IMG/VR virus record: IMGVR_UViG_3300041809_000972 | Span: 1-38,582 of that record | From: a virus | Lineage: Duplodnaviria; Caudoviricetes | Reading direction: 5' to 3' (one strand) | Length of the DNA stretch: 38,582 nucleotides | In this document: piece after piece, positions 276-33,334 of the stretch | How the letters are laid out: each line of letters begins with the position of its first letter | Position numbering within the stretch: position 1 is the stretch's first letter | Notes under the pieces: generated by a model | Databases searched by the model: none | Seen by the model: only the letters and a program-made list of their open reading frames with translations | Told to the model about the DNA's origin: nothing | Translations under genes and position numbers: made by a program

Positions 276-495
276 AACCAAGGAGATGACCCACGAGGAG
301 TTCGCGAGGCTCGTGATCCGCAAGACGGAACTCGATGCCGAACTCAAGGCGGTCCGAGAGGTGATCAAGCGCTGCCCGTTCGAGTTGCCATTTGCGCTGA
401 AAATCGATGACAACATCGTGTCGGTGAAGCCGCCCCAGTACGTGAACGGAATGCCGAAAGTGGAGGTCATACCTCTGCTGGGGATCGGCTCGTGA
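259..495 (+). CDS. hypothetical protein (78 aa)
   Basis: GAGGAGG upstream; GTGA overlap with the next gene. Confidence 0.6.
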   Translation: MSAPAKTKEMTHEEFARLVIRKTELDAELKAVREVIKRCPFELPFALKIDDNIVSVKPPQYVNGMPKVEVIPLLGIGS

Positions 496-1367
496 TCATC
501 CTCATCGAGGGGATCGACCGAACTGGTAAGTCCACCCTCGCCGATCGCCTCAGTGCCTTCACGGGCGGGACTATTTTCCACTTCAGCAAGCCTGAAACCC
601 ACCCGCTGTACGAGTACACAGCGTCGCTCGCAACATACGACCCGGTCAGGTCCACCGTGATCCTCGACCGGAGCCACGTCGGGGAGAGCGTCTGGCCGCT
701 GGTGTTCGACCGGCCGTCGAAGCTCGACGAGCCGATGCGACGGTGGCTCAACATGTTCTACATGTCGCGGGGCGCTGTGCTGCTACATGCGGTGCGCGCC
801 GTCGATCAGGCGACGGCCGACGAGTACGAGGCGGCCGGTGAGCCCATCTACCTACTCGGAGACATCGACTACGCAGCGAACCTGTACCGCTCGGTCGTGT
901 CGGAGACGGGACTTCCCGTGTGGGAGTACGAGCACGGTGGCTGGCCCGGCGCGGCCCTGCACGAGGCCGCTCGGCGCTCCGTGATCGCAAGCGAACTGAT
1001 GGGCGTCACACCGCGATGGGTCGGGTCGCCCGCACCGCGGCTCCTCATCGTGGGCCCACACGACAGCCACCGCGCGATGCCGTCCATGCCGTATGAGGAT
1101 ACGGATGCGCACTTCCTACTGGGCGAGCTCAGCGGGTGGAGGCAGTGCGCACTCGTGAACGCGGTCCGACCGGACGGCGAGGGTGTTGAACCCCTGAAAG
1201 CCCTGTGGCGTGGGCTCGGTTCGCCGGCGGTCGTGGCCATCGGAGGCGAGGCAGCGGATACCGTCAGATCATGCGGGATGGCTCCCGATGATGTGATCGG
1301 AGACCTGCACGGTTGGCGTAGGACGACATCGGGCAACCTCGGCGAGTACCTAGGGAGGATCGTATGA
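492..1367 (+). CDS. dNMP (thymidylate-kinase-like) P-loop kinase fused to a degenerate uracil-DNA-glycosylase-like domain
   Basis: IILIEGIDRTGKST P-loop and ILDRSHVGESVW (TMK DR motif). C-terminal half has PRWVGSPAPRLLIVG...ALVNA...VVAIGGEA, a UDG-superfamily layout. Confidence 0.75.
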   Translation: MIILIEGIDRTGKSTLADRLSAFTGGTIFHFSKPETHPLYEYTASLATYDPVRSTVILDRSHVGESVWPLVFDRPSKLDEPMRRWLNMFYMSRGAVLLHAVRAVDQATADEYEAAGEPIYLLGDIDYAANLYRSVVSETGLPVWEYEHGGWPGAALHEAARRSVIASELMGVTPRWVGSPAPRLLIVGPHDSHRAMPSMPYEDTDAHFLLGELSGWRQCALVNAVRPDGEGVEPLKALWRGLGSPAVVAIGGEAADTVRSCGMAPDDVIGDLHGWRRTTSGNLGEYLGRIV

Positions 1368-1609
1368 ACGTGAAGATCACACCCGGCGAGCACGAACCCG
1401 AGCGGATCGAGGTGACCCTCTCCCGGCGTAACCTCCTGTCCCTGCTCGCGAAGCTGGACGGCCACCCGCCGAACTCGGCCTGCACCATCGACCGCAACAT
1501 ACGGGAAACTGACCTCGTCGTGGTCGCACAGGAGGATGAGGACCACTACGCGGATCGGCAGGTCGCGCGCGGCATCATGCACCCGGATACCGAGGAGGCG
1601 ATCGCGTGA
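1364..1609 (+). CDS. hypothetical protein (81 aa)
   Basis: GGGAGG RBS; 4-nt overlaps with the genes on both sides. Confidence 0.65.
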   Translation: MNVKITPGEHEPERIEVTLSRRNLLSLLAKLDGHPPNSACTIDRNIRETDLVVVAQEDEDHYADRQVARGIMHPDTEEAIA

Positions 1610-2418
1610 GGAAGACGAACAAGCGCTGGCAGAGCAAGCTCGAGGAGCTCCTCGATGACGGCATGACGGTCTCACCGCGGGGTAAAGAGACGCGCGAGCA
1701 GCTCGCAGGTCAGTACCGTGTGCCGATGCCCGCTTACCTATCGCTGGCCGCGCGGAAGGTCAACATCCCGTTCCTCCTCGCGGAGCCTGCGTGGATCCTG
1801 TCCGGCAGCAACCGGCTCAAGGATCTGATGCCGTACATGCGCGCCTACCAAACGTTCAGTGACGACGGTGTGTTCCTGCGGGGGGCGTACGGTCCCAAGA
1901 TCGTCGATCAGCTCCACTTCATCGTGGACTCGCTCGCCGAGGACGAATCGTCGCGTCAGGCGTACCTGAACATCTGGCGTGAGCGCCCGCAGAAGGCTGC
2001 CGACATCGCGTGCACGACCGGGATGCAGTTCGTAATCCGAGGCGGCGCACTACACTGCATCACGACGATGCGGTCCCAGGACATCGTGCAGGGTTTCACC
2101 TTCGACGTGTTCATCTTCTCGTGCGTCGCCGAGGCGGTCCGCCTCCTCCTCGCTGAGCGGGGTGTGCACGTGGTGCTCGGCGACCTTACGGTCACCGCGG
2201 GATCGATGCACCTGTACCGCGATCCGTTCGGGAAGGGGGATGACCAGTTCGCGAAGGCGCGGTCATGGGTGTCAGCCACCACCGAGGATTCGACCGTCGA
2301 GCGCTACGTCACGGTTGCTTTCCAAGCCAAATCGTTCGACGGGTTCATCAGCCAGCTGTGGCAGTCGGCGAACGACGCAAAAACAGAGATCGCGCTCCGT
2401 GCCAGGTCCGCTGGATAA
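1606..2418 (+). CDS. thymidylate synthase-fold enzyme, probable dCMP hydroxymethylase (or dCMP C5-modifying enzyme)
   Basis: AEPAWILSG, GAYGPKI, SRQA, catalytic Cys in DIACT, MRSQDIVQGFTFD and GSMHLY. The specificity position is Asp (codon 2104-2106), as in T4 gp42 RSNDVVFGFRND, not Asn as in ThyA. Confidence 0.8.
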   Translation: MRKTNKRWQSKLEELLDDGMTVSPRGKETREQLAGQYRVPMPAYLSLAARKVNIPFLLAEPAWILSGSNRLKDLMPYMRAYQTFSDDGVFLRGAYGPKIVDQLHFIVDSLAEDESSRQAYLNIWRERPQKAADIACTTGMQFVIRGGALHCITTMRSQDIVQGFTFDVFIFSCVAEAVRLLLAERGVHVVLGDLTVTAGSMHLYRDPFGKGDDQFAKARSWVSATTEDSTVERYVTVAFQAKSFDGFISQLWQSANDAKTEIALRARSAG

Positions 2419-4174
2419 CACCGAAGTCCACCTCGTAGAGAACCTCGAGGACCTCGACCGCCTACGCACCTGGCTGGGCGAACGACGCGAGTGGCTCGCG
2501 TGCGACATCGAGACCGAGGGGCTGAACGTGGGTAGGGACGCGATCCGCCTCTGCCAGCTCGGTGATAAGAACCACGGGTGGGCGATCCCGTGGGCCGACT
2601 GGCGCGGAGCAGTGAAGGACATGCTACCGGTGTACGACGGGAAAGTGGTCTTCCACAACGCACTCTTCGACACGCGCTTCCTCAAGCGTGACGGCGTGGT
2701 GATCCCGCAGCACCGTGTGCACGACACGTACCCGATGGCCCACCTCGTGGACCCGCGTTCGGGCGTGTCGCTGAAGGGTGGCGGTGCACGCTACGTCGAC
2801 GCGCGCGCATACATGGGAAGCAGCGGCTTGTCCGATGCGTACAAGGCGGGTAAATGGGACTGGAGGACAATCCCCATCGACCATCCGGCCTTCTGGGTCT
2901 ACAGCGCGATGGACACGGTTCTCACGGCTCTCCTGGCTGAGGAGCTCTGGCCACAGATTCAGCCGTTCATGAAAGTCTACGAGGTCGAGATGGCCGCGAT
3001 ACACGTGCTGCGCGATGCTGGCCTACGTGGCATGGCGATCGACCTCGACTACACGCGGCGCGAGCGGGCGTTCCTCGAAAACAGGGTCGAGCAGCTGCGC
3101 GCCCACCTGCCGTTCGAACCGTCCAAGGAGGCGCAGGTCATTGAATGGCTCCAGTCGAAAGGTGCGGTCCTAGTGGAGAGGACTGACGCCGGGAACCTGT
3201 CCGTGGACGACGACGTCCTCGAGGAACAGGAAGCCTACTTCCCCGAGGTACGCACGCTGCGTGAGTGCCGCAAACGTGAACGGATGGTGAACAACTACTT
3301 CAAGAAGTTCGAGGATGAAAACGTCGGCGGTGTTCTCTACCCGTCCGTGAAGGTCCTCGCAGCCAAGACCGCACGCATGTCCGTCACCGACCCCCCGCTG
3401 CAGACGCTGCCACGCGGCCAGATGGTCCGCAACTGTTTCGTCCCACGTAGCGAGGGCAGCAGCCTGATCCTCGCCGACTATGACGCATGCGAGCTCAGGG
3501 TCCTCGCATCCTTCGCCGAAGAACGCCCGATGATCGAAGCCTTCGAACGAGGTGAGGACCTGCACACGTGGGTGGCATCGCAGGCGTACGAAGTCCCCAT
3601 CAGCGAGGTCACGAAGCCGCAGCGGCAGGTCTCGAAGAACACGCAGTACGCGCGGGTGTACGGTGCGGGGAACGCGAAGATCGCTCTGACCGCCGGGGTG
3701 CCCGTGGATGTCATCGATCGGTTCATGGTCAAGTACAACGAACTTTTTCCGGGCGTACAGGATTGGATGATGGCCACCATCGCGCAGGTCCGTAGCAGTA
3801 GCTTCAAAGGTGACTCGAAGACAGGATACGTGGAGACGATCCTCGGGCGGAGGCTGCCCGTCGAAAAGAGCAAGGCGTTCAAGGGCATAAACTACCTCAT
3901 CCAGTCGTCGGCCACAGCGGACCTCCTCAAGCTGAAGCTGGTGGAACTCGCAGCGGCCGGGTTGGGTGACAAGATCCTCCTGCCCGTCCACGACGAGGTC
4001 GTCTTCGAAGCGTCCGACGATGAGCTCGAGGATGTGGTCGCCACCATCCACGATGTGTTCCCGGAGCACCGCCTCTTCCAGTGCCCGATCGCCATCGACG
4101 TCAACACGACGAAGCGCTGGGGTAGCAAGTACGCGGGTATGGATAGCCCGCTATTCGAGGAGTACGCAGCGTGA
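2399..4174 (+). CDS. polA: DNA polymerase family A with 3'-5' exonuclease domain
   Basis: ExoI CDIETEG, ExoII HNALFD, ExoIII YSAMD; motif A DYDACELR, motif B RQVSKNTQYARVYG, motif C VHDE. Start placed at GTG 2399; the 2162 start in the ORF track overlaps the upstream gene heavily. Confidence 0.95.
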   Translation: MPGPLDNTEVHLVENLEDLDRLRTWLGERREWLACDIETEGLNVGRDAIRLCQLGDKNHGWAIPWADWRGAVKDMLPVYDGKVVFHNALFDTRFLKRDGVVIPQHRVHDTYPMAHLVDPRSGVSLKGGGARYVDARAYMGSSGLSDAYKAGKWDWRTIPIDHPAFWVYSAMDTVLTALLAEELWPQIQPFMKVYEVEMAAIHVLRDAGLRGMAIDLDYTRRERAFLENRVEQLRAHLPFEPSKEAQVIEWLQSKGAVLVERTDAGNLSVDDDVLEEQEAYFPEVRTLRECRKRERMVNNYFKKFEDENVGGVLYPSVKVLAAKTARMSVTDPPLQTLPRGQMVRNCFVPRSEGSSLILADYDACELRVLASFAEERPMIEAFERGEDLHTWVASQAYEVPISEVTKPQRQVSKNTQYARVYGAGNAKIALTAGVPVDVIDRFMVKYNELFPGVQDWMMATIAQVRSSSFKGDSKTGYVETILGRRLPVEKSKAFKGINYLIQSSATADLLKLKLVELAAAGLGDKILLPVHDEVVFEASDDELEDVVATIHDVFPEHRLFQCPIAIDVNTTKRWGSKYAGMDSPLFEEYAA

Positions 4175-4248
4175 TCCTCGACATCGCAGCCATGTACGTC
4201 CTCCTCACCGTCCTGATCGTGTGGTGCCTATGGAAGTTGCACTCGTGA
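4171..4248 (+). CDS. putative 25-aa membrane peptide
   Basis: GTGA overlap with the polA stop, GAGGAG upstream; MILDIAAMYVLLTVLIVWCLWKLHS is one hydrophobic helix. Confidence 0.4.
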   Translation: MILDIAAMYVLLTVLIVWCLWKLHS

Positions 4249-4269
4249 TATCTAACCTAAAGGAGACGA

Positions 4270-4482
4270 ATGAAACGTAGGCTCATAGCATTCATCGCGA
4301 TGATGCTCGTCATCGCACTCGCAGCCATTGGTGTCGCATACGCGACGGGCGGTAGCGAACCGAACCTCGTCGTCAAAACACCGACCGCACTCACCTCGGT
4401 CGGAGCGAACACGCTGACGGAACCATCATCGACTTCCGCATCTGGCAAAGGTGAAGGCGAATACACGCAGCGGACCTTCTGA
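4270..4482 (+). CDS. small secreted or membrane-anchored protein
   Basis: AAGGAG RBS; signal-peptide-like N-terminus MKRRLIAFIAMMLVIALAAIGVAYA, then a Thr/Ser-rich tail. Confidence 0.65.
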   Translation: MKRRLIAFIAMMLVIALAAIGVAYATGGSEPNLVVKTPTALTSVGANTLTEPSSTSASGKGEGEYTQRTF

Positions 4483-5009
4483 TGAGGGTCGCCCACTTCT
4501 ACCACGCCTGGTGCAACGGTGCCTGGCACAACCCAATATGCGAGCACCTGGACGCACTTGCTGAGAGCGGCTTTCCGTCGCCCGTGCATCTGGGCGTGGT
4601 GGGTGGGCCCAACGAACGAGGTAGGTGCATCGCCGCATTCGGCTCTACTGTGAAGGTGGTGGCCGAGGAGCGGTACGGGTTCGAGCAGGTCACGCTTATG
4701 CAGCTGCGCCACTACGCACATTATCACGACGGTGCCGTGATGTACGCGCACACAAAGACCGACCCGGAGTGGCGACGGCTGATGACCGATCACATCGTCC
4801 GGGACTGGCGGATCTACCTCGCGAAGCTCGAGGAGTACGATCTCGCCGGACACTGGTGGAGGATGGAGCCTGACATGCACTTCTCTGGCAACTTCTGGAT
4901 GGCGACGTGCGCCTACATACGCACGCTGCCGCCGATCCGCAACACCAACCGGCACGACGCTGAGAAGTGGCTCGGGCTTGGTGACCCGCGCGTGGAGGGA
5001 AAGCCATGA
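4482..5009 (+). CDS. conserved viral protein, probable glycosyltransferase-like (RgpF-like) fold
   Basis: FEQVTL, VMYAHTK, WRRLM, HFSGNFW, YIRTLP and RHDAEKWLG motifs, recalled from a phage/giant-virus family found in glycosylation clusters. Confidence 0.5.
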   Translation: MRVAHFYHAWCNGAWHNPICEHLDALAESGFPSPVHLGVVGGPNERGRCIAAFGSTVKVVAEERYGFEQVTLMQLRHYAHYHDGAVMYAHTKTDPEWRRLMTDHIVRDWRIYLAKLEEYDLAGHWWRMEPDMHFSGNFWMATCAYIRTLPPIRNTNRHDAEKWLGLGDPRVEGKP

Positions 5010-5254
5010 GGACGACCGCTGATCACCTCACCGCACTGGAAGTACCCGAGAGTGAGTGGGACCGCATCGTCGAGGAGAACGCCCGGGTGCATAGCGTACC
5101 GGTGCGAATGCCAAACGGTCAGCTGCTCGTGGTCACGGTGCAGGACGACCAGCCGGATGACAACGCCCTCGCGATCCTGTACTGCCTCGCTGAAATGGAA
5201 GAGTGCGGCGGAGGATCTGATGTGCCCGCTGCCTACGGATTGAGGTCCGCATGA
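5006..5254 (+). CDS. hypothetical protein
   Basis: GGAGGG RBS; ATGA overlaps. Confidence 0.55.
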   Translation: MRTTADHLTALEVPESEWDRIVEENARVHSVPVRMPNGQLLVVTVQDDQPDDNALAILYCLAEMEECGGGSDVPAAYGLRSA

Positions 5255-5703
5255 GAGTGTTCGCCGTAGACCCGGGAGGCAGCACGGGCTTCGCTGAATG
5301 GCGTGACGGGAGGTTCCGCGCGTGGTGGGAGCCGTGGGAAGAAGCGTGTGCTACCGTGCACCGCGAGCTCGCGACAGACGTCGACCACTGCGTGTTCGAG
5401 AGCTTCCACATCTCCGCGCAGACGGCGAAGAAGAGCACAGCAGGCTCGCTGCAGGCCATCGAGCTGATCGGCATCGGTCGATACCTCTCGCGAGCCTACG
5501 ATGTGACCTTCACGACGCAGTCCCCGAGTGAAGCGAAGATGTTCGCGACGGATGCGAAGCTGCGGGCGCTCGGTATGTGGACGAAGGGCGTAGACCATCC
5601 TCGAGACGCCACACGCCATCTCGTCCTGTTCCTATGCAACCGGCGCATCATCGACCTCGTGCAGCTGCGCAGGTCGCTCGATGCAGCCGTGAAGATACGG
5701 TAG
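5251..5703 (+). CDS. RuvC-like Holliday junction resolvase
   Basis: VFAVDPGGSTGFA, VFESF and DHPRDATRHL supply the RNase H-fold acidic residues. Confidence 0.8.
   Translation: MRVFAVDPGGSTGFAEWRDGRFRAWWEPWEEACATVHRELATDVDHCVFESFHISAQTAKKSTAGSLQAIELIGIGRYLSRAYDVTFTTQSPSEAKMFATDAKLRALGMWTKGVDHPRDATRHLVLFLCNRRIIDLVQLRRSLDAAVKIR
5680..5701 (+). promoter_or_regulatory. candidate class III promoter; TACGGT -10 followed 6 nt later by ATG (likely leaderless)
   Basis: GATGCAGCCGTGAAGATACGGT is similar to GATGAAGCTGTGAGGATACTAT at 32292-32313; no RBS before ATG 5708. Confidence 0.4.
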
Positions 5704-5707
5704 CCAT

Positions 5708-7477: not shown

Positions 7478-7754
7478 CATCGAGGAGCTCGTCCTGGCTG
7501 ATGTGAAGCGGGTCCACCTGAACCCGGGCGACGTCCTCGTGCTGCGGGTGGACGAGATTCCGCTGAGCGAGGATGCGATGAAGCCGTTCAGCGCCTACGA
7601 AGCCTTGGAGGCGTTCCTGCACGATACCTTTCCACACAACAAGTGCGTCATCATGGACGGCACGTCCGACATCGAGGTCGTCGGTGCGCCGGACTGGGAT
7701 GAAGTGGCACGCGAGGTAGCAAGGAGGTCCCGTGAGCACGCTGCGCGCGCCTGA
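7470..7754 (+). CDS. hypothetical protein
   Basis: GGAGGT RBS before ATG 7470 (MADIEELVLAD...). Confidence 0.6.
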   Translation: MADIEELVLADVKRVHLNPGDVLVLRVDEIPLSEDAMKPFSAYEALEAFLHDTFPHNKCVIMDGTSDIEVVGAPDWDEVAREVARRSREHAARA

Positions 7755-8319
7755 CGACCTGACGGGGCACATCGAGCTCCGCTCCGGGTCCTTCCTCAAC
7801 TTCCACGATCCGGACCCGACCCACATCACGCTGGACGACGTGGCGCACGGGCTCTCCCACATCTGCCGCTACACGGGGCAGTGCACGATCTTCTACTCCG
7901 TCGCGGAGCACGCGGTCATCGTGTCGCGTCGGCTCGAGTACCTCGGGTTCGATCGCGACGTTCAGTGGTCGGGCCTCCACCACGACGACGCCGAGGCGTT
8001 CGTCGGGGACGTGAACCGACCGCTGAAGGGCATGCTACCCGAATACAAAGCCATCGAACGTCGGGTGTGGCTCGCCGTGAACGAGGCGCTCGGCCTCGGG
8101 CTCACTGATCCGCAGCCGCGTGCCGTGAAGGATGCGGACAACTGGGCGCTATCCGCGGAGGCTTATCACTTGCTTCCCTCCGGCGGTGCGTCGTGGTTTT
8201 CAGCGGGTCTGTACGACCCGGATAACGACCCGTTTCCGCTGGGAGGATTGACCCCCGGACAGGCGAAGGTGTCGTGGCTCGAACGTCATCACGAACTGGA
8301 GGAAGCAGATGGACGGTAA
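7732..8319 (+). CDS. HD-domain 5'-deoxynucleotidase (YfbR/YfdR-like)
   Basis: LSHICRYTGQ..FYSVAEHAV, LHHDDAEAFVGDVNRPLK and VKDAD; AAGGAGGT RBS. Confidence 0.85.
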   Translation: MSTLRAPDDLTGHIELRSGSFLNFHDPDPTHITLDDVAHGLSHICRYTGQCTIFYSVAEHAVIVSRRLEYLGFDRDVQWSGLHHDDAEAFVGDVNRPLKGMLPEYKAIERRVWLAVNEALGLGLTDPQPRAVKDADNWALSAEAYHLLPSGGASWFSAGLYDPDNDPFPLGGLTPGQAKVSWLERHHELEEADGR

Positions 8320-8665
8320 CGACATTCTCAGCGAGGCCCACGGCATCATCCGTGGCGAGCGGTTGCAGCACTACGGGCCACCGACCAGGAACTTCCGACG
8401 CATCGCTGACGGATGGTCGGCGTACCTCGGGTTGGATACGGCCGTGGACGAGCTCGTGGACGATCTGAACGCGGGGAACCTCGACGACCTGCGCACGAAG
8501 CTCGAAGGGTTCAAGACGCACCTCACCGTCAACGACGTGTGCGCGCTGATGGTCATCCTCAAGCAGATGCGGATGGCCGACAACGGGTACCACCGCGACT
8601 CGGCCGTGGACACATGTGGGTACGCGGCACTACAGGAGATCCTCGAGGAGGGAGTGGGGCTATGA
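8309..8665 (+). CDS. DUF6378-like protein (all-alpha, predicted nucleotide pyrophosphohydrolase fold)
   Basis: ILSEAHGIIRGERLQHYGPPTRNFRRIADGWSAYLG...MVILKQMR...HRDSAVDTCGYAAL. Confidence 0.75.
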   Translation: MDGNDILSEAHGIIRGERLQHYGPPTRNFRRIADGWSAYLGLDTAVDELVDDLNAGNLDDLRTKLEGFKTHLTVNDVCALMVILKQMRMADNGYHRDSAVDTCGYAALQEILEEGVGL

Positions 8666-10303: not shown

Positions 10304-10330
10304 AGCGCACGAGAGGATACGGTAAGAACA

Positions 10331-11029: not shown

Positions 11030-11730
11030 TGGCAGACCTCAACCTCCAGGAGGCACTCGCCCGCCACGAAGCGGAGCAGCCGACCCTCCTTCCTGATGGT
11101 GCATACACCTTCGAAGTCACCCGCGCGACCGCCGGCGAGAACTACATCGGCGCGTTCCTCAAGGTCATCGGTGGACCCGAGGCCGGCAAGATGGTGAAAA
11201 TCTCGCTGTCGTTCACCGACAAGGCGATGGGCATCGCGTTCCAGAACCTCGCTGGCTTCGGCATCGGGAAGAACGAGATCGCGCAGGCCAGCGGACTCAA
11301 GGACCTCGCCACGCTGCTGACGGGTCGCGTCGTCGAGTTTCCGGAGTTCGGGCGCCGCGAGCACAACGGTCGAGAATACCCGTCGTGGCCGATCGGCAAG
11401 ATCAACCTCATCTCGCTCGGGACCGCTAACGGTGCTCCTGCAGGGGTACCGGCACCGGCCGCCGCTGCACCGCCCGTCCCGGCTCCCGCACCTCCGGCAC
11501 CGCCGGTCGCAGCAGCGCCCGCAGCTGCGCCTCCGGTCGCGGCGCCCGCCGCACCTCCGACACAGCCTCCGGTACCTCCCGCCGCACCTCCCGCGGCGCC
11601 CGCTCCGCAAGAGGCGGCACCCGCTGCGCCTCCGCCGGCACCACCCGTCGCAACTGCGCCTCCGGTCGCGGCGCCCGCCCCAGTCGCCGCGCCTCCGGTC
11701 GCTCCCGACGGCACACCCTCCCCGTTCTGA
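11026..11730 (+). CDS. ssDNA-binding protein (DUF669-like) with long Pro/Ala linker and PF C-terminus
   Basis: LLPDGAYTFEV...GPEAGK OB-fold-like N-terminus; about 95-aa P/A tract; ends PSPF. Confidence 0.65.
   Translation: MMADLNLQEALARHEAEQPTLLPDGAYTFEVTRATAGENYIGAFLKVIGGPEAGKMVKISLSFTDKAMGIAFQNLAGFGIGKNEIAQASGLKDLATLLTGRVVEFPEFGRREHNGREYPSWPIGKINLISLGTANGAPAGVPAPAAAAPPVPAPAPPAPPVAAAPAAAPPVAAPAAPPTQPPVPPAAPPAAPAPQEAAPAAPPPAPPVATAPPVAAPAPVAAPPVAPDGTPSPF
11440..11720 (+). repeat. Pro/Ala low-complexity coding repeats
   Basis: CTGCGCCTCCGGTCGCGGCGCCCGCC occurs at 11525-11550 and 11654-11679, with further degenerate copies. Confidence 0.7.
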
Positions 11731-12233
11731 TGGCGGGGAGGACCGGCAGCGCTGATGAGCCGTTCTTCGACGCTGGCAACGTCGTGAACCGCGAGCCGCC
11801 CACCGTGGTAGACATGGTCACGGTGCTGGACTCGGACCTGTACGAGGCGGGGCTGCAGCAAGGGTACGCGAATGACGTGTGTGTCGACCTTGCGGTGAGG
11901 TACTCGTCCCCGCAGCTCGCGGCCCATACCACACACCGTGCGCCCCTCGGGATCAGCGTCGCGATCCCGGACGGATACGTCGGGATTGTGGTTCCCAGGA
12001 CATCGACTGCCAGCGAAGGTGTGCAGGTCAGCACCCCCGTGATCGACCCAGGGTACGAGGGCGAGGTGCATACCTGGCTCACGTCTCCGGTCCCCACGAG
12101 GTACGCACGCGGGCAGCTGCTCGTCGGCCTGCTCGTGGTACCGTGCGTACCGCCCGGCGCGACGGCACGTAGGGATGGTCCGCGTGGCATTGGGACAACC
12201 GCGAGCTCGGACACGAAAGGACCGACCCCATGA
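11730..12233 (+). CDS. trimeric dUTPase/dCTP-deaminase-fold protein, divergent
   Basis: VDL (motif 1), IPDGYVGIVVPRTS (2), VIDPGYEGE (3), GQLLVGL (4, conserved Gln lost), PRGIGTT (5). The true start may be ATG 11814. Confidence 0.75.
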   Translation: MAGRTGSADEPFFDAGNVVNREPPTVVDMVTVLDSDLYEAGLQQGYANDVCVDLAVRYSSPQLAAHTTHRAPLGISVAIPDGYVGIVVPRTSTASEGVQVSTPVIDPGYEGEVHTWLTSPVPTRYARGQLLVGLLVVPCVPPGATARRDGPRGIGTTASSDTKGPTP

Positions 12234-12415
12234 GCAACGTCATCATCACGATCCGTGAGGATCACGAGGGTAGCCTCGATGTGAAATGCGAGTTCGAGCC
12301 TGCCATCACGCGTGGCCAGGATTGGGATGCCATCCCATTCACACACAAACTTGCGATGGCCATGATGGAGCGCGCGAGCGCCGTCGGAGGCGACGCGGAG
12401 GTGACGCCATCATGA
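12230..12415 (+). CDS. hypothetical protein (61 aa)
   Basis: AAAGGA RBS; ATGA overlaps. Confidence 0.6.
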   Translation: MSNVIITIREDHEGSLDVKCEFEPAITRGQDWDAIPFTHKLAMAMMERASAVGGDAEVTPS

Positions 12416-13692
12416 GACGCAACTTCGTCGACTGCCAAGGGCTGGCTGGGGCGTGGAGCCTCGGCACAGCACAGGCCGGCTTCGACCTCCTCCACCGCGT
12501 GGCGCTTCCGGGAGGGTTCGGCAACGCGGTGATGGAGGAGAACCGTAGCAAGTTCCGTGGGCTGAACACCTGGTGGCATCAGGAGGACGGCACACCCGCG
12601 GACGGATGGACGCCACAGATGAACGTCTCGTTCCTGTGCGGCACACCACCGTGTTCAGGCTTCTCGCTGATGAACGCATCCAAGGGTGAAAACGCCCGCG
12701 GTCCAGGTAGCCTCATCAATAACTGCATGCGTGAGCTCATCACGTACGCGGGTATGTGCACGGGATCTGACGGCCGACCCGGTCCCGAGATCGTATCGTT
12801 CGAGTCTGTGCAGGGCGCGTACACGCAGGGACGCTCGCTGATGGTGGAGCTCCTCACGATCCTGAACGAGCTCACATATGCGCGGTACGCGACCGACTCC
12901 CGCTTCGACGTCCCACGTTACGAGATAACGCACGTGCTGATGTCCGGCGGTTCCGTGGGGGCTGCCCAGATGCGGCACAGGTACTTTCCGGTCTTTCACC
13001 GGATCCCGTTTGGCGTCGATCAACCGCCGGAGCGTCACGTCACGACCTACGAGATGGCGATCGGTGACCTGCAGGGAGCCAAGTTGCAGTGGGAGGATCA
13101 GCGGTACAAACGGAAGGACCGCTTCCAGTTTCAGACGGACCGCCGCCGCGACGACGGCCTCTTTGACTCGCACGTCACGAAGGACGAGGGGCGCGTGGCC
13201 GACGTCATCCACCAGTTCTGGGACGGGTGGAACATCGGCGAGAACCTGACCCAGTCTCTCGAGCGCCGCGGCATCCGCCCGCCCGAGCTGGAGAAATCGT
13301 GGAACGAGGCTGAGCAGAAATACAACGGGTGGAGCTGGCCCGTCAAGATCCGCCCAGACCGCTGTGGCTACGTGCTCACGGGCGGTGCCATCCACGGCGT
13401 CGTCCACTGGGCGGAGCCGCGCCTCCTTACTGTGCGCGAGTGCTCGCGCCTCATGGGTTACCCAGACGCCTGGACATGGCCCACAGGAAACTCCGGCCAG
13501 GCGTCGATGTGGATCGGGAAGTGCTGCCCCGTGAACAGCGGGCAGTGGCTCTCCGAATGGGCGCTTCGCGCCCTCGAAGGTGACCCAGGTGAGCCCGGGG
13601 CTAAAATTGGAGAGGATGAGAACCTCTTCAACTGCACCCTCGCCTATAAGAAGTGGCCGGGTGGATCCGTACCCAAGCGACTGGAGGATTGA
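12412..13692 (+). CDS. C5-cytosine DNA methyltransferase-fold enzyme with atypical cofactor-pocket residues
   Basis: Motif I VDCQGLAG, IV GTPPCSGFS, VI FESVQG, VIII QMRHRYF, IX RLLTVRECSRLMGYPD, X IGKCCPV. Confidence 0.88.
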   Translation: MRRNFVDCQGLAGAWSLGTAQAGFDLLHRVALPGGFGNAVMEENRSKFRGLNTWWHQEDGTPADGWTPQMNVSFLCGTPPCSGFSLMNASKGENARGPGSLINNCMRELITYAGMCTGSDGRPGPEIVSFESVQGAYTQGRSLMVELLTILNELTYARYATDSRFDVPRYEITHVLMSGGSVGAAQMRHRYFPVFHRIPFGVDQPPERHVTTYEMAIGDLQGAKLQWEDQRYKRKDRFQFQTDRRRDDGLFDSHVTKDEGRVADVIHQFWDGWNIGENLTQSLERRGIRPPELEKSWNEAEQKYNGWSWPVKIRPDRCGYVLTGGAIHGVVHWAEPRLLTVRECSRLMGYPDAWTWPTGNSGQASMWIGKCCPVNSGQWLSEWALRALEGDPGEPGAKIGEDENLFNCTLAYKKWPGGSVPKRLED

Positions 13693-15016: not shown

Positions 15017-15511
15017 ATGCCCGTCTCCGTCTTCGATGTGGACGGGTGCCTCGCTGACACCCTCCCGCTGCTGAGCTGGTGCTACACCGCAGCAGCGGGA
15101 GTGACCGTGACCCGCGAGCACGTCCGGCGTCCGTGGGAAGGATGGCTCCCATCCCTTGTCGGCGAGGGCGAGGCAGCACGTGTGCGTGCCCGCAAGACGG
15201 AGCTGTACCTGTCAGCACTTCATCAGCACCCACCACGTCGGCTTCCGGCCGGTGACCTGGCAGCCGAGCTGCTGCGGTCGGGCGAGGAGGTATATGCGGT
15301 CAGTGCCGCGAAAGCGCTGGTGACCCCCTACGTGCTTGCCGCGATCGACCTCGAGGACCTACCGATCCTGGCTCCGGAAGTCATGCCGTGGGAACGGCCG
15401 ACGGTCCTTCCCGGCCCGTGCGGCACGTACTACGACGATGATATCGCCACATGCCTGTTCGTACGGATGTTCACCGACTGGACCACCATCCCCACCCTGG
15501 GGGAGACATGA
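15017..15511 (+). CDS. HAD-superfamily phosphatase
   Basis: VFDVDGCLADT (DxD motif I), AVSAA (II), YYDDD (IV). Confidence 0.75.
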   Translation: MPVSVFDVDGCLADTLPLLSWCYTAAAGVTVTREHVRRPWEGWLPSLVGEGEAARVRARKTELYLSALHQHPPRRLPAGDLAAELLRSGEEVYAVSAAKALVTPYVLAAIDLEDLPILAPEVMPWERPTVLPGPCGTYYDDDIATCLFVRMFTDWTTIPTLGET

Positions 15512-16569
15512 GCGTCGCAATCATCACTGGGTCGAGCGGCCTCGTAGGATCCGCCGCCGTCAAATACTTCACCGAACAAGGCTTCGACGTCGTGGGGATC
15601 GACAATGACATGCGCGCCCGCTTCTTCGGCGACGAGGCCTCCACGTGGGGCGTCGGCGATGCACAGGCTCGCCGCTACGATACCTTCCGCCTGCGGTCGG
15701 TCGACATCAGGGACTACGCCGCCGTGGCTCGCGCCTTCGTCGAGGCTGACGACATCGAGCTCGTCGTGCACTGTGCCGCGCAGCCCGCACACGACTGGGC
15801 GGTAAAGGATCCGTTGACCGACTTCGGCGTCAACGCCCAGGGGACGATCAACGTCCTTGAGGCTACCCGGAAATACTGCCCGGATGCGCCGTTCGTCCAC
15901 TGCTCCACGTCGAAGGTCTACGGGGCGAACCCGAATCTGCTTCCGCTCGTGGAACTGCCGACCCGCCTCGAGGTGCCAGAAGGTCACGAGTACCGCGATG
16001 GGATCACGACCACGATGTCCATCGACCGGACGACGCACTCGCTGTTTGGTGCGCACAAGGCGGCCGGTGACCTAATCGTTCAGGAGTACGGGCGGTACTT
16101 CGACATGCCGACGGTCTGCTTCCGTCCCGGTTGCCTCACCGGACCGAAACACGCCGGCACCGAGCTCCACGGGTTCCTGTCCTACCTGATGAAGTGCGTC
16201 ATCTCCGGACGGCCGTACTGCGTGTACGGATACCACGGCAAGCAGGTGCGGTGTAACCTCCACGCCGACGACCTTGTCGTCGCGTTCGACCACTGGCGGA
16301 AGGCACCGCGCTCCGGTGATGTGTTCAACATCGGCGGTGGCCGGGAGAGTAACTGCTCGATGATCGAGGCGATACAGGCCGCAGAGCTGATCGCCGGGAA
16401 GCGGCTCGACTGGGACTACAGCGACCGCGCACGCATCGGCGACCACAAGTGGTGGATCAGCAGCAACGCGGCCTTCCGGTCCAGGTACACGGGATGGAGC
16501 GTGCTACACGACACCGAGACGATCCTCCAAGAGATCCATGACGAGAACGTCGAGCGGTGGTCGGCATGA
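15508..16569 (+). CDS. NAD-dependent nucleotide-sugar epimerase, CDP-paratose 2-epimerase (RfbE)-like
   Basis: ITGSSGLVG, HCAAQPAHDWA, STSKVYG, HSLFGAHK, FRPGCLTGP..GTELHGFLSYL and RIGDHKWWIS. Confidence 0.85.
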   Translation: MSVAIITGSSGLVGSAAVKYFTEQGFDVVGIDNDMRARFFGDEASTWGVGDAQARRYDTFRLRSVDIRDYAAVARAFVEADDIELVVHCAAQPAHDWAVKDPLTDFGVNAQGTINVLEATRKYCPDAPFVHCSTSKVYGANPNLLPLVELPTRLEVPEGHEYRDGITTTMSIDRTTHSLFGAHKAAGDLIVQEYGRYFDMPTVCFRPGCLTGPKHAGTELHGFLSYLMKCVISGRPYCVYGYHGKQVRCNLHADDLVVAFDHWRKAPRSGDVFNIGGGRESNCSMIEAIQAAELIAGKRLDWDYSDRARIGDHKWWISSNAAFRSRYTGWSVLHDTETILQEIHDENVERWSA

Positions 16570-17189
16570 GCTACGAGGACACGCTCGAGGCAGAGGTCGC
16601 ATCGTGGCTCATTCCGAACGAGGCGGAGCGGGAAGAGAAGTTCAAGCGCGAGCGGATCCGCCACCACAAACTGCTGCGTGACCTGCTGCTGGACAAGCTG
16701 GGCACTGAGGAGATGTCCATCCTTGAGGTCGGGGGCGGTCCGATGCCGGTGTCCGACCTACTGCGCTTCGGGTACCGACGTGTGGTGGACCCGCTCTCCG
16801 ACGAGTACCGTAAGGTGTTGCCGTGTCCCGACCACGTCGCGATGCAGGCCGAGGACATCGGCGAGCAGGGTGTGTACGACCTGGCCATCGCCACGAACTC
16901 GCTCGACCACGTGCAGGAACCCGACATGGTGCTGCAGAAGATGTTGCAGGCCGTGCGACCGACCGGGTACATCGCGATCGCCGGCGCGGAGAACAACGCG
17001 ATCACGCATCCTCATCCCGCGCACGTGCACAACCTGACCGCCGGCTGGGTCCACCGCCGCCTCGACCCGTACTGCGAGACGGTGTGGGAGCTGACGTACG
17101 CGCGCGACGGGTTCAGGTACGGGTGGCGCGAGTACGAGGGTCGACGCGGTCAGCCGGCCTTTGCGCTTCTGATGCGCCGCTGCGGTTGA
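16566..17189 (+). CDS. class I SAM-dependent methyltransferase
   Basis: ILEVGGGP, VVDPL, AEDI, YDLAIATNSLDHVQEP and RPTG. Confidence 0.85.
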   Translation: MSYEDTLEAEVASWLIPNEAEREEKFKRERIRHHKLLRDLLLDKLGTEEMSILEVGGGPMPVSDLLRFGYRRVVDPLSDEYRKVLPCPDHVAMQAEDIGEQGVYDLAIATNSLDHVQEPDMVLQKMLQAVRPTGYIAIAGAENNAITHPHPAHVHNLTAGWVHRRLDPYCETVWELTYARDGFRYGWREYEGRRGQPAFALLMRRCG

Positions 17190-20263: not shown

Positions 20264-20571
20264 TCGCCGCATTCACCGCGCTGCTGCTAGCGACCGCAGC
20301 GCCGCGTCACTACGAGGTGTCATCGACGTGCTACGCTCAGGGCGGCGTGACCGCCTCGGGCGAGGACGCATACCTCGGGGAGGTCGCCGTCCTACCGGGA
20401 TTCCTTCCGCTGGGTACGCACATCAGGCTCGATCATCCCGAGTTCGGGAGGAGAAACTACGTCGTGCTTGACCACATCGGACACGGGTCGGAACTCGACA
20501 TCTTCAATCCTTCGGAAGAGGCTTGTATCCAGTACGGTCGGCGCGAGATTGGATTTACGGTGTCACGGTGA
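20260..20571 (+). CDS. secreted 3D (Asp-Asp-Asp) domain protein, lytic-transglycosylase-like
   Basis: Signal-like N-terminus; STCY..GVTASG..VAVLPGFLPLGTHI..VLDHIG..LDIF..EACIQYGRR. Confidence 0.75.
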   Translation: MIAAFTALLLATAAPRHYEVSSTCYAQGGVTASGEDAYLGEVAVLPGFLPLGTHIRLDHPEFGRRNYVVLDHIGHGSELDIFNPSEEACIQYGRREIGFTVSR

Positions 20572-21086
20572 TCCTCCAGCGCATCCTCATGGAGCAGGAC
20601 CCGACCGGCTGGCGGATGATGAACGGGTGCATCCTGCTGAACCTCACGAGGCGGCAGCAGGTGGACCTCGTGTACCCGGAGCTCTTCCGCTGCTACCCGG
20701 ACCCGGGCCACATGCGGAATGCGTGGCAGACAGACCTCGCCGACAAGCTTCGTCCGCTCGGTCTGCAGTACAGGCGCGCGGAGACCCTGCGTAAGTTCAG
20801 TGACTGGTGGTGCCGAGCGTGGGACCCGGGCGAGGACATGACGATCACGCTGGGTCAGGTGCCCTACCCATCGTCCTTCCTCGAGCGGATACGCGCGATG
20901 GAGCCTCCGGGCATCGGCGAGTACGCACGTGACAGCTGGGCGATCTTCGTGGAAGGCATCGTGCCGGACTGGGAGGTCAACGATCACGCCCTGCTGGAGC
21001 ACCTCAGCGAGCTCGACCCGATGATGTGGTGCACCGATCGCCGGCCTTGGGAGCCCGAGGCGTACTGGGCCGAGCGGATCAGATGA
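20568..21086 (+). CDS. MBD4-like HhH-GPD DNA glycosylase (G:T/G:U/G:5hmU mismatch)
   Basis: WRMMNGCILLNLT, LRPLGLQYRRAETLRKFS, PGIGEYARDSWAIF and NDHAL parallel MBD4 WKLLIATIFLNRT, LKPLGLYDLRAKTIVKFS, HGIGKYGNDSYRIF and EDHKL. Confidence 0.85.
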   Translation: MILQRILMEQDPTGWRMMNGCILLNLTRRQQVDLVYPELFRCYPDPGHMRNAWQTDLADKLRPLGLQYRRAETLRKFSDWWCRAWDPGEDMTITLGQVPYPSSFLERIRAMEPPGIGEYARDSWAIFVEGIVPDWEVNDHALLEHLSELDPMMWCTDRRPWEPEAYWAERIR

Positions 21087-27264: not shown

Positions 27265-27470
27265 AGGTTGCCCCTGTCGCGTTCTTCTTGCAAGAGCTCC
27301 TCGTGCCGTGCCATCTCGATGGCGTCGCGTTCGTCCATCAGGCGACCACGCCGGACCTTCCACAGCCTCCAGTGATCCTCGACGTCGTAGTGGAAGATGA
27401 GGAACCACACGAAGAAGCTTCCGACGAAGCTACCGGATGCGGAGATCAGCCACTCTGCGATGATGCTCAT
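27261..27470 (-). CDS. small membrane protein
   Basis: GGAGGT RBS; MSIIAEWLISASGSFVGSFFVWFLIFHY helix; 4-nt overlaps on both sides. Confidence 0.6.
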   Translation of the reverse strand: MSIIAEWLISASGSFVGSFFVWFLIFHYDVEDHWRLWKVRRGRLMDERDAIEMARHEELLQEERDRGNL

Positions 27471-29928: not shown

Positions 29929-29944
29929 AGAATGAAAGAATTAG

Positions 29945-30439: not shown

Positions 30440-30448
30440 GAGCCGAAA

Positions 30449-31252
30449 ATGATCAAGCAAGCATCCACCACGAAGGTGATCCCGATCACCGACATCTTCC
30501 TCGACTTCGCTGACGAGGGAGGCTACCAGCGCCGCAGGTCCGAGGACGAAGCCATCCGCATCGCCGAGCACTACGATCCGGACCTCTTCGAGATCCCGCA
30601 CGTGTCCGACCGGTCGGTGCACGACCTCCCGCTCGGACCGAACGGCGAGCGGTACTCGATGCCAGACGGCGGCGCGCGGCTCATGGCCGCGGAGCTGATG
30701 GGATGGAAGTCGCTGAAGTGCGAAGTCCACGTCTTCGAACGGGTCGAGGATGAGGCGAAGCTGTTCGCGGACCTCGCGACCGGCCGCAAGTCCATCACGC
30801 CGCTCGACACGTTCTTCGCCCGCCTGCGTGAGGGTAGCGGTGAGCACGTCGCCCTCTCGACCATCCTCGAGAGTGCGGGCTGGAAGATCAGCACCGGATC
30901 AGGCAAGCGCTCGATCAGTGCGGTCCAGCAGACGATGTCCGCCTACCGCAACTACGGGGAGATCCCGATGCGACGAGCGCTCATGCTGCTCGAAGCATGG
31001 GATGAGGACGAGCACGTCTCCGGACCCATCCTCGCGGGGATGGTGCAGTTCGTCGCCGAGTACGGATCCCAGATCGACATGGACAGCGCGCGCCGCAAGC
31101 TCGCGAAGGTGCCGATGTCGACCATCTACCGCCGTGCGAAGCACGCATCCCAGCTCAGCAGCAACGCCGGCAAGCTCAGCGCGCACGTGGTGGGCGAGCT
31201 CCTCGCCGAGTACAACCGTGGCCGTCGTACCACGGCGCTGGTGGCCGCATGA
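30449..31252 (+). CDS. ParB/Srx-like N-terminal domain protein (DUF6551-like)
   Basis: YQR, IAEHYDPDLF, VSDR, PDGGARLMAA (variant of DGxHR) and EAKLF. Confidence 0.7.
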   Translation: MIKQASTTKVIPITDIFLDFADEGGYQRRRSEDEAIRIAEHYDPDLFEIPHVSDRSVHDLPLGPNGERYSMPDGGARLMAAELMGWKSLKCEVHVFERVEDEAKLFADLATGRKSITPLDTFFARLREGSGEHVALSTILESAGWKISTGSGKRSISAVQQTMSAYRNYGEIPMRRALMLLEAWDEDEHVSGPILAGMVQFVAEYGSQIDMDSARRKLAKVPMSTIYRRAKHASQLSSNAGKLSAHVVGELLAEYNRGRRTTALVAA

Positions 31253-32268
31253 GGATCGGCCTGTGGCGCACCTCGATGTACAAGGACGACGGCGTGTACC
31301 GCGGCTTCGTCGCGCTGGAGCGGGCGCTGAAGCGGTTGGGCCACGAGGTGGTCACGGTCGGCGCGCCGCGACCGAACGTCACCAAGTTCGACGGGTGTGA
31401 CGTCGTGTTCGTCTACGAGGCGATGTGGAACTGGGGGAAGAAGACCGACCCGACCACCGTCCTCGAAGGCGTCCGCCGCATCGGACCGGAGCGCTGCATC
31501 CTCGGGGTGAACTGCCCGCTCGACTCGCTGCACGGTGATGTGCGCGAGCCGACGCTGCAGCTGCTGCAGATCGTGCCGCGCGTGTGGACGAACTCGCGCC
31601 ACCGTGTGGCCGGCTACCGCGACGACGCCTTCGTCTCGCCGTACATCCTCCACTGGCCGGAGTTCCCGGCCTACGCGGGAGGAGCCTCCGGCGTCATCGC
31701 GACGGGGCGCATCTGGGACAAACGCAAGCGGCTGCTGCTGCCCATCGAGCACGGGTACCGGGGCGGCTACACGCTGTGTGGGTCGCTCGGCCTGTTCGGC
31801 GGCTGGGTCCGGAAGGAGCTGATGGCGGCGGGGGCCGAGATGGTGTCGGCCGAGCCATCATCCGGCAGTAAGCCGTGGATGGTGACGTGGCCGGGATACG
31901 ACACCACCCTCGTATACGAGGGCAAGTACAAGGACTTCACGATGGTTCCGTGGCACCTCGCGAAGGTCCATTTCGCGGGGGTCGAGGCTGAGTGGGTAGG
32001 AGACCCCGGCCTGCTGGAGACCGTCACCATAGAGGCGATGGACGCTGGCCTGAACGTGGTCGTACCCGTGCACTCGGCGCGACCAGTGCTCGGGTACAAC
32101 TCGATCTTCACCTTCGAGGGCGACGACCCGACCGCGGCCATCGAGGCAGCGATGGAGTCGCCCCCGCTCGACCACTCACACGACCTCGCCCTCCACGACC
32201 CGCTGCTGTTCGCGCGCAGGCTGCTCGCGTGGAGCTGGACGCCCCACGAATACCCGCTTGCGCAGTAG
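31249..32268 (+). CDS. divergent GT-B glycosyltransferase, candidate DNA-base glycosyltransferase
   Basis: MRIGL...ALKRLGHEVVTV, DVVFV, ATGRI..KRK and LETVTIEAMDAGLNVVVP (EA-x2-G GT-B motif). Confidence 0.7.
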   Translation: MRIGLWRTSMYKDDGVYRGFVALERALKRLGHEVVTVGAPRPNVTKFDGCDVVFVYEAMWNWGKKTDPTTVLEGVRRIGPERCILGVNCPLDSLHGDVREPTLQLLQIVPRVWTNSRHRVAGYRDDAFVSPYILHWPEFPAYAGGASGVIATGRIWDKRKRLLLPIEHGYRGGYTLCGSLGLFGGWVRKELMAAGAEMVSAEPSSGSKPWMVTWPGYDTTLVYEGKYKDFTMVPWHLAKVHFAGVEAEWVGDPGLLETVTIEAMDAGLNVVVPVHSARPVLGYNSIFTFEGDDPTAAIEAAMESPPLDHSHDLALHDPLLFARRLLAWSWTPHEYPLAQ

Positions 32269-32291
32269 GACGTTCACCCGTAAACACAACC

Positions 32292-32313
32292 GATGAAGCT
32301 GTGAGGATACTAT
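32292..32313 (+). promoter_or_regulatory. candidate class III promoter
   Basis: Intergenic GATGAAGCTGTGAGGATACTAT; similar to 5680-5701. Confidence 0.45.
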
Positions 32314-32353
32314 GTCAGTAAGCACAAGTCAGTACCGCAACATGGGAGCAGAC

Positions 32354-33334
32354 ATGAAGGACCCGCTCAACATCATCGACTTCATCCTCGAGCGGCAGAC
32401 GATGTGGCACCAGATGGAAGTCCTCGAGGAGCTTCCGTACACAACGGACATCATCCTTGCCAGCCGCCGCTTCACCAACGTCCAGCGCGAGTTGGACCGC
32501 GGCACATGGTGCCTACGTCTCGCGCTCGAGGCGCACCGGGGCGCAACGCCGGCCGAAAAGGTCCTCAACGAGATGCTCCACCTCCTTCTGCGAGGAGGCA
32601 CACAGGCGCTCGATATGCTTGGCTGGCAGGATGGAAAGACCGTCCCCGGCATCCTGAGCGTCCAGCGCCAGCTGAAGACGTGGGGCCTACCGTTCGTCGG
32701 ACGCGCCGGACAGGCGCGGGCGCCGCGACCGGCCGACATCGGGCTCAGCAGTAAGGAGGAGCTGCATGAGCTTCCGCGGGGAGAGCCTCTCGCGATGTAC
32801 TTCGAAGCCATCATTCGCAAGTGGTTGGCCGAGGGCACCCATGAGAAACTGGCAGCGGTCTGTGCGAGTGCCGACTCGCTCGAGGCTGTGTTCGACGAGG
32901 CCTGCGCCATCACAAATAGGTTCGGCGCGATGCAGATCGCCTTGAACACCACCTACAGCCACGAGCATCTGACCGATGACGAGTGGGTGTTCTTCCATCA
33001 TGGCAAGACGAACAGTAAGACTGCGGACCGTGGCAGCCTCGTCGGCTTGATGGAGATCGCCACCTACCATCCCGGACGCTACCGGAACTCGACGGCACTC
33101 GAGCTCGCACGGGAAATCGTCAAGGATCAGGATCGCCTGTTCCCCGGATGGGCGGGCGTAGCCTGTCCCGCAAAGCCGCGGTTGACGCTCGCGGATCTCG
33201 AGCACGCATCCTGTGAGTACTCGAAGTACAGGCGCATCCGCGGGGCCACCTACAGCCCGTCGCGGTACACACCATCAGTTGGGCGGAAGTCGATATGGCT
33301 CGCACATAGGGATCAGCTGCCCGATAAGTGGTAA
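32354..33334 (+). CDS. aGPT-Pplase1 / 5-hydroxymethyl-dU DNA kinase helical-domain family protein
   Basis: FILERQTMW..PYTTDIILASRRFTNVQRELDRGT and LTLADLEHASCEYSKYRR are the N- and C-terminal signatures of the family; GGGAG RBS before ATG 32354. Confidence 0.8.
   Translation: MKDPLNIIDFILERQTMWHQMEVLEELPYTTDIILASRRFTNVQRELDRGTWCLRLALEAHRGATPAEKVLNEMLHLLLRGGTQALDMLGWQDGKTVPGILSVQRQLKTWGLPFVGRAGQARAPRPADIGLSSKEELHELPRGEPLAMYFEAIIRKWLAEGTHEKLAAVCASADSLEAVFDEACAITNRFGAMQIALNTTYSHEHLTDDEWVFFHHGKTNSKTADRGSLVGLMEIATYHPGRYRNSTALELAREIVKDQDRLFPGWAGVACPAKPRLTLADLEHASCEYSKYRRIRGATYSPSRYTPSVGRKSIWLAHRDQLPDKW

Follow-up and report, generated by a model that had tools for sequence, protein, structure and literature searches.

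Gene content consistent with glycosylated 5-hydroxymethylcytosine in the DNA of an actinophage-like virus

Glycosylated 5-hydroxymethylcytosine (5hmC) is known from the T-even phages, where it is made by T4 gp42, gp1, gp56 and the glucosyltransferase AGT, while phages RB69, DLP3 and RL38J1 glycosylate 5-hydroxycytosine, and the thymidine-modifying phages M6, ViI, PaMx11 and SH-Ab 15599 use a dUMP hydroxymethylase, a 5-hydroxymethyluracil (5hmU) DNA kinase (5-HMUDK) and an aGPT-Pplase of clade 2. The aGPT-Pplase and 5-hmdU-kinase families were reportedly defined by Iyer et al. in 2013, and in the literature found the kinase/transferase route is described for 5hmU alone. Here we analysed the whole of IMG/VR record IMGVR_UViG_3300041809_000972 (38,582 bases, about 64% G+C; hereafter the window), and consider it fairly probable from its genes that the phage carries glycosylated 5hmC, made by a different enzyme lineage from those described and in phages of probable actinobacterial hosts. 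A thymidylate synthase (TS)-fold enzyme would convert dCMP to 5-hydroxymethyl-dCMP (5hmdCMP), which the adjacent kinase would phosphorylate and the polymerase incorporate, and an AGT-like GT-B glycosyltransferase (GT; gene 31249, genes being named by their start position) would then glycosylate the 5-hydroxymethyl group in the finished DNA. A dUTPase-fold protein (11730) may remove dCTP, MBD4-like and uracil-DNA glycosylase (UDG)-like domains may repair deaminated 5hmC, and the sugar-coated cytosine would be expected to resist host restriction. We infer every one of these steps, as well as the sugar, from the genes present and their co-occurrence, and from their folds and the residues of the active sites.

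The window represents an estimated 41% of the phage genome and corresponds to its replication arm, the structural genes being absent from it. A second IMG/VR contig (L004), 99.99% identical across window positions 1-12415, reaches 3,740 bases further upstream and brings the sequenced part to 42 kb. The host is presumably actinobacterial, since the closest cultured matches of the polymerase and the methyltransferase are those of actinophages.

The TS-fold enzyme at 1606 has MilA, a CMP 5-hydroxymethylase (PDB 5B6D), as its top PDB match (E 3e-24), followed by ThyA (E 1e-10). In E. coli numbering its D133, D159 and D167 become D143, D169 and D177, with C136 as the catalytic Cys146 and T137 as T147, and D167 is aligned both with the Asp of MilA and with the position of Asn177 in ThyA. 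According to those sections of Lee et al. 2026 (PMC13326640) that treat these residues, Asp177 marks dCMP, an acidic residue 143 hydroxymethylation and Asn169 5-hydroxylation, and L143D plus N177D with D169 retained is the pattern of a 5hmdCMP synthase. The window enzyme has all the residues of a dCMP hydroxymethylase (Cys146, Asp177, an acidic residue 143 and the retained Asp169), and D143/D169/D177 is also found in T4 gp42 and MilA, in 119/119 of the homologues listed and at 79/79 viral loci, a count for which one search pattern itself demanded D169. The 5-methyl-dCMP (5mdCMP) synthase of Xp12, the sole characterised one compared, has N143/P147 and forms a separate long-branch clade, while in the tree of 22 sequences the window enzyme grouped (support 100/99) with a TS that is directly followed by a gene matching Pfam AGT (E 2e-18). 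A 5-hydroxy-dCMP synthase of the RB69 gp48 type was ruled out, as D169N is not present (RSQD, D159); RB69, DLP3 and RL38J1 share with the window an Asp177 TS homologue, a kinase and a GT-B, but have D169N where the window retains D169. MilA is the best structural-sequence relative, sharing D-x-x-C-T and Asp177, although it reads RAND instead of RSQD and belongs to an antibiotic cluster, whereas the window enzyme is coupled to a DNA polymerase. It is therefore likely, judged by its residues, that gene 1606 encodes a dCMP-to-5hmdCMP enzyme. No dCMP deaminase was found in the window or in L004.

The frame of the family A DNA polymerase (PolA) overlaps the TS stop codon, and its true start is probably the GTG at 2399. 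The kinase at 492 has a visible P-loop (GIDRTGKST) and weak profile matches (PHROG 761, E 6e-5; Pfam E 0.048, under the cut-off), and is 27% identical over its full length to the thymidylate kinase of phage DSL-LC01; its C-terminal part is closest to UDG clusters, with a TM-score of 0.76 and a feature score of 0.86 that serves as a lead only.

For the glycosyltransferase at 31249 four homologues were found, and the protein fell in the AGT cluster of the atlas at 0.97. A model built from five sequences (pLDDT 66) matched T4 AGT in its four best PDB hits (E 4e-5 to 2e-4, TM about 0.4) and had a GT of Gordonia phage GMA2 as its top viral structural match. Among about 200 loci, the five-sequence profile selected the GTs of phages GodonK (E 0.0014), Kurnik and GMA2 (E about 0.09). 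Once extended with these three, and with no T4 input, the profile found T4 AGT (E 9e-4) and matched neither T4 BGT nor the other GTs of the window. In GodonK, GMA2 and Kurnik the GTs closest to 31249 adjoin MazG and an unusual C5-methyltransferase (MTase) gene in the replication modules, and all three, like DSL-LC01, have D143/D177 TS genes and the gene order of the window; nothing was found in the literature on the bases of these four phages or of Microbacterium phage Kauala. Cultured phages searched by tblastn with 31249 and 32312 gave no match, a scan of viral contigs with the GT alignment gave no relatives, and the GT profile did not match the candidate at locus L005. A TS that is 80% identical and a GT from the nearest cluster each occur on about 20 contigs, the longest being 95,614 bases in both sets, which suggests that they share one genome; the 95.6-kb contig with this TS did not come up in the metagenome scan. 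A DUF6551/ParB-like gene (30449-31252) overlaps the start of the GT gene and could encode a DNA-binding partner.

Compared with the T-even pathway, the window thus shares the D143/D169/D177 TS, a deoxynucleoside monophosphate (dNMP) kinase, a dNTPase candidate and an AGT-like GT-B, and differs in a TS of the MilA-like instead of the gp42-like clade, an actinophage-type PolA replicon, the UDG-like fusion of the kinase, a GT below Pfam AGT detection, and extra MTase-fold and PF18723 genes. An earlier sequence-only reading had proposed a cytosine route with a DNA-type GT, which the TS signature and the AGT-like 31249 support, and all genes that it named lie where it placed them (Table 1): the kinase (the UDG-like domain of which it had missed), the TS with the dCMP-type Asp, PolA beside it, the HD nucleotidase, the DUF6378 protein, the dUTPase fold, the atypical C5-MTase, the MBD4-like glycosylase and the GT-B, the last confirmed by its fold though without a family-profile match. 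Of its HAD/epimerase/methyltransferase block, the epimerase and methyltransferase were recovered by profile, while the HAD-like gene at 15017 shows only the motif DVDGCLADT and no profile match. The comparison of gene neighbourhoods that it had called for shows the TS, kinase, PolA, odd C5-MTase and a related GT together in cultured relatives, the presence of PolA there being taken from annotation and Pfam, as PolA was not covered by the tblastn comparisons.

Table 1. Features of the window that may bear on base modification, with the basis of each assignment
Feature	Position	Strand	Basis
dNMP kinase with UDG-like C-terminal domain	492..1367	+	P-loop, PHROG 761, C-terminal fold match
TS-fold enzyme, dCMP hydroxymethylase signature	1606..2418	+	D133, C136, T137, S157, D159, D167; Pfam E 2e-16
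Family A DNA polymerase (PolA)	2162..4174 as listed	+	Pfam E 9e-62
HD-domain dNMP 5'-nucleotidase-like protein	7732..8319	+	PHROG 318 E 3e-50
DUF6378 protein	8309..8665	+	Pfam 79 bits
Divergent trimeric dUTPase-fold protein, candidate dCTPase	11730..12233	+	Pfam 33 bits
C5-methyltransferase-fold protein, altered SAM motifs	12412..13692	+	Pfam 66 bits; DCQGLAG, ESVQ, GKCCP; PPC intact
HAD-like, NDP-sugar epimerase and methyltransferase block	15017..17189	+	Epimerase 15508 137 bits; methyltransferase 16557 33 bits
MBD4-like HhH glycosylase	20523..21086	+	phmmer best E 7e-8
GT-B glycosyltransferase resembling T4 AGT	31249..32268	+	Fold and profile
Stand-alone clade-1 aGPT-Pplase (PF18723)	32312..33334	+	All-helical, E287-x-x-x-C291, no kinase domain

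Canonical C5-MTases have the S-adenosylmethionine (SAM) motif I FxGxG, the ENV motif and motif X. The family of 12412 has DC[NQ]GLA, E[SC]VQ and GK in their stead, the count for E[SC]VQ being circular as it itself served as a search pattern, while the catalytic Pro-Cys is kept (PPCS in 80/81 open reading frames); the match of 12412 to NCBIfam dcm reaches 31 bits for a cut-off of 101. The family occurs in 15/50,697 phage records, all of them actinophages. When the 30 longer contigs from 79 other MTase loci were searched whole, 21 had a TS (4/4 of those near-complete), and all 21/21 showed D143/D169/D177. Within 10 kb of the MTase gene, 55 of the 79 loci have homologues of the actinophage GTs (identified by GenBank annotation or the GT profile, most without Pfam matches), another five have a kinase together with a transferase, and the remaining 19 have none of these. 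Because fully hydroxymethylated DNA would leave a true methylase no substrate, the role of 12412 has presumably changed from methylation. A metallophosphoesterase gene (13696-15012) directly follows 12412. Its distant homologue (21%) in G055 is placed one gene further away; G055, the genome of which is complete (95.3 kb, 66% G+C), is the closest complete relative by helicase (51%) and MTase (50%). In DSL-LC01 and at locus L258 the odd MTase is followed by pyrimidine-dimer glycosylase-like genes; in the window the second of two short frames at 22002-22342 resembles, by eye, the end of such a gene, with no Pfam match.

A homologue of the HD-domain protein was found in the relatives G055 and G056, and the DUF6378 gene of locus L138 likewise adjoins dUTPase, PF18723 and TS genes. 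The dUTPase-fold gene lies between the single-stranded DNA-binding protein gene and 12412, a slot which in G055, G056, G059, G077, GodonK, GMA2, Kurnik and DSL-LC01 is taken by MazG/dUTPase_2 genes, and it is for this position that 11730 is considered a candidate dCTPase; the 'dUTPase' of GMA2 was rejected as a trimeric dUTPase, being MazG-like. For the HhH-GPD homologue at 20523, 15/16 PDB matches were MBD4, and D137, after the helix-hairpin-helix (HhH) motif, is aligned with the Asp of GIGKYGND, which we take to be the catalytic residue. Its homologue directly follows the TS in G055 and is absent from G059 and G077, and it is a candidate for the removal of deaminated 5hmC (5hmU:G).

Gene 32312 had been assigned to the aGPT-Pplase1/5-hmdU-DNA-kinase family, and phosphorylated 5hmC was named as one possible base of the phage; neither a kinase activity of 32312 nor phosphorylation encoded by the window is supported. 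With PF18723 it scores 62 bits (cut-off 25) and it aligns over its full length with M6 gp55 (hhalign 99.3%), as expected of a clade-1 aGPT-Pplase, the Pfam label '5-hmdU DNA kinase, helical domain' naming the helical and not the kinase domain. A DNA kinase was rejected for this all-helical, gp55-like protein (model pLDDT 89), the start of which overlaps no P-loop gene. In M6, gp55 is the PF18723 protein, gp54 the kinase (PF18748) and gp51 the transferase (PF18724); the gp54 and gp51 profiles match nothing in the window, which therefore gives no sign of phosphorylation, and neither a 5-hmU DNA kinase nor a profile match to the clade-2 amino acid:DNA transferases was found in the window or in the bases that L004 adds upstream of it. 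The window thus shares with the M6, ViI, PaMx11 and SH-Ab 15599 system the clade-1 protein, here in two copies, but has Asp177 in its TS where theirs have Asn177, and PF18748 and PF18724 were not found in the 42 kb. The second copy (604-1662 of L004, in the part upstream of the window) is 31% identical to 32312 and keeps E-x-x-x-C; it lies upstream of genes for an endonuclease-like protein, a primase and a sigma-70 factor.

Across the PF18723 family C291 is present in 80/80 members and E287 in 74/80, and the same E-x-x-x-C is found in M6 gp51 and holds the Glu243/Cys247 site of PaMx11 gp46 (PMC11472151). The fold of 32312 resembles that of gp46 weakly (E 1.6, TM 0.36-0.40), and any equivalence to clade-2 transferases would be one of motif; Foldseek with the 32312 model gave nothing under E 0.001, the weak fold matches including HhH glycosylases such as MUTYH, a profile comparison of the family with M6 gp51 gave no match, and the PF18723 alignment, searched against the sequences of the PDB, had chance matches only (E 0.13 or worse). 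Lee et al. 2021 (PMC8989533) found that glycine transfer in M6 does not require gp55, and no clade-1 activity is reported in the literature found. Our preferred interpretation of 12412 and of the pair of clade-1 aGPT-Pplases is that they are accessory enzymes with a cysteine nucleophile that act on DNA pyrimidines bearing a hydroxymethyl group, which is testable with cultured phages that carry the clade-1 protein (Kauala) or the 5hmC-linked MTase fold (GodonK, GMA2 and Kurnik).

We compared the nearby TS at 92 viral PF18723 loci, counted without de-replication: it had Asn177 in 52 cases (two called by eye) and Asp177 in six, was truncated in two and absent in 32. The six Asp177 loci represent four distinct sequences, one of them Xp12-like, and at L138 PF18723 and the TS are adjacent. 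Phage Kauala (L199 1368-5176) likewise combines PF18723 with a T4-gp42-like Asp177 TS and P-loop nucleotide kinase 3. By contrast, PF18723 was found in 0/50 TS-clade contigs (the longer ones out of 79 loci) and 0/30 MTase-clade contigs, G055 included, with a positive control of 5/5. No relatives came up when viral contigs were scanned with the single 32312 protein, nor any close PF18723 relatives when the genomes of GTDB were scanned. The pairing with an Asp177 TS is therefore recurrent, uncommon and not conserved in the clade of the window phage. The sequence-only reading had treated the 33-kb span as one toolkit, but its conservation as a whole is not supported: besides these absences, no copy of the HAD/epimerase/methyltransferase block was found in the relatives examined, 7 annotated and 4 metagenomic. 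Of GodonK, GMA2, Kurnik, DSL-LC01 and Kauala, none as examined unites PF18723, the odd MTase and the AGT-like GT in the way the window does. Brevibacterium phage LuckyBarnes (L198 5822-9837) has a TS-GT-GT-PF18723 run with Asn177 and GT-A enzymes, a candidate for glycosylated 5hmU, and at L186 (9956-15664), in a phage with a D143/D177 TS and a deaminase, PF18723 is followed by genes for an exonuclease, a methyltransferase, a B12 radical-SAM and a radical-SAM/SPASM protein.

Kinase and transferase genes were found among the relatives. Orthologues of M6 gp54 are present in G059, G077, G056, L210 and L214 (phmmer E 1e-16 to 2e-7), alongside ADDT-like genes (of four scanned, two pass the Pfam cut-off) and genes for HAD and dual-specificity phosphatases; two of them also have a myo-inositol-1-phosphate synthase. 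G059 and G077 carry a dCMP deaminase, and for that reason the substrate of their kinase may be 5hmU. G055 has a single TS with D143/D177, a PF18748 kinase above cut-off and, with E-x-x-x-C kept, a transferase-like gene that matches the profile of the relatives at E 2e-58, and neither a dCMP deaminase nor ThyX was found in it. The transferase-like gene, a dual-specificity phosphatase and the 5-hmU DNA kinase orthologue lie at about 25466-28009 of G055:C1 (L304 6466-9009), adjoining capsid genes; the window does not include this region. As an Asp177 TS, a kinase and a transferase are here found without a dCMP deaminase, the gene set of G055 points to thymine-type chemistry on cytosine, though the host may supply a deaminase. 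It would predict 5-phosphomethylcytosine and, beyond it, a new base family that might be of use in 5hmC labelling. The mix of cytosine and thymidine routes suggested earlier for the window is supported in so far as PF18723 occurs in an Asp177 phage, and is better supported in G055, G059 and G077 than in the window itself; nothing was found in the literature on kinase or aGPT-Pplase action on 5hmC, although it may have been predicted before. Gene clusters near the odd MTase lie at L208 4940-9987, L204 11126-15409, L268 6007-9165 and L210 114-3833, with inositol-1-phosphate synthase (in two), HAD, an ADDT-like transferase, a phosphatase, an FkbM methyltransferase and a DNA kinase, and are candidates for an inositol-substituted pyrimidine.

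A wider proposal, possible if doubtful, is that thymidine-hypermodification chemistry has moved to cytosine in the actinophage-like clade and that the window phage makes an undescribed amine- or polyol-substituted cytosine, alongside or in place of glycosyl-5hmC. The 5hmC in DNA would then be activated and substituted via a C6-cysteine adduct by interchangeable modules, namely sugar transferases, DNA kinase plus transferase, clade-1 aGPT-Pplases and a repurposed C5-MTase fold, with inositol synthase joining the kinase/transferase module in some relatives.

Several observations weigh against glycosylated 5hmC in the window phage. In the wording of the pertinent section of PMC13326640, residue 143 merely 'appears to correlate' with the product, a dCMP deaminase lies within 10 kb at 28/79 loci of the D143 TS clade, and 5/7 deaminase-linked TS homologues made 5mdCMP in the assays described in part of bioRxiv 2024.12.05.627091. 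The GT is placed 29 kb from the TS, has no Pfam, PHROG or NCBIfam match, staying under the cut-off of Pfam AGT (PF11440), and its model is moderate, with other GT-Bs scoring near AGT. A direct profile comparison with the AGT of L007 gave no match (probability 3%), Pfam AGT was found in only 1/50 TS-clade contigs, no homologue of 31249 is detectable in G055, and the usual MazG-type dCTPase was not found in the sequenced part. The 5mdCMP products, and the fact that Asp177 alone cannot tell a methylase from a hydroxymethylase, would agree with a TS making 5mdCMP as in Xp12 (or dTMP), with no hydroxyl left for further modification; with D143/T147 in place of the Xp12 residues, a tree position apart from that long-branch clade, no deaminase found in the 42 kb and, for dTMP, no Asn177, we regard this as very improbable. 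Plain 5hmC, with the GTs, epimerase and methyltransferases decorating the virion or host surface and the PF18723 proteins being DNA-binding or repair accessories or passengers, would agree with the lack of Pfam AGT at 49/50 TS-clade loci, with a separate cluster of six GTs in the window (22319-28183) and with the weak fold matches of 32312 to HhH glycosylases such as MUTYH. It is nonetheless improbable, as GT 31249 is unlike the GTs of that cluster, prefers T4 AGT and has its homologues in replication modules beside MazG and the odd MTase.

Less easily set aside, if still unlikely, is a conversion of part of the 5hmC by thymidine-type chemistry into an undescribed substituted cytosine, in which a cysteine of the clade-1 aGPT-Pplases and/or the MTase-fold protein would attack C6, the hydroxymethyl carbon lose a leaving group and an amine, polyol or thiol be added, with a DNA kinase possibly encoded where the genome is still unsequenced. 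The motif shared by both paralogues with PaMx11 gp46 and M6 gp51, the Asp177 TS/PF18723 pairs (including Kauala with its P-loop kinase) and G055, with its kinase block beside capsid genes in a region that the window does not cover, all argue for it. On the other side are the missing kinase and clade-2 transferase, the dispensability of M6 gp55 in the part of PMC8989533 concerned, the lack of any reported clade-1 activity, the weak gp46 fold match with the failed gp51 comparison, the absence of PF18723 from TS- and MTase-clade contigs, and the deaminases of G059 and G077, with which the kinase could act on 5hmU derived from 5hmdCMP. Glycosylated 5hmC therefore remains the reading that we prefer for the window.

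At its end the record breaks off within a gene for a pentapeptide-repeat protein (37884-38582). The minus-strand cluster at 22319-28183, which the sequence-only reading had left out, contains five GT-A and one GT-B genes, a hexapeptide acetyltransferase (Vat/CatB-like, far below cut-offs) and a methyltransferase; it probably serves virion or surface glycosylation, and the HAD/epimerase/methyltransferase block may supply it.

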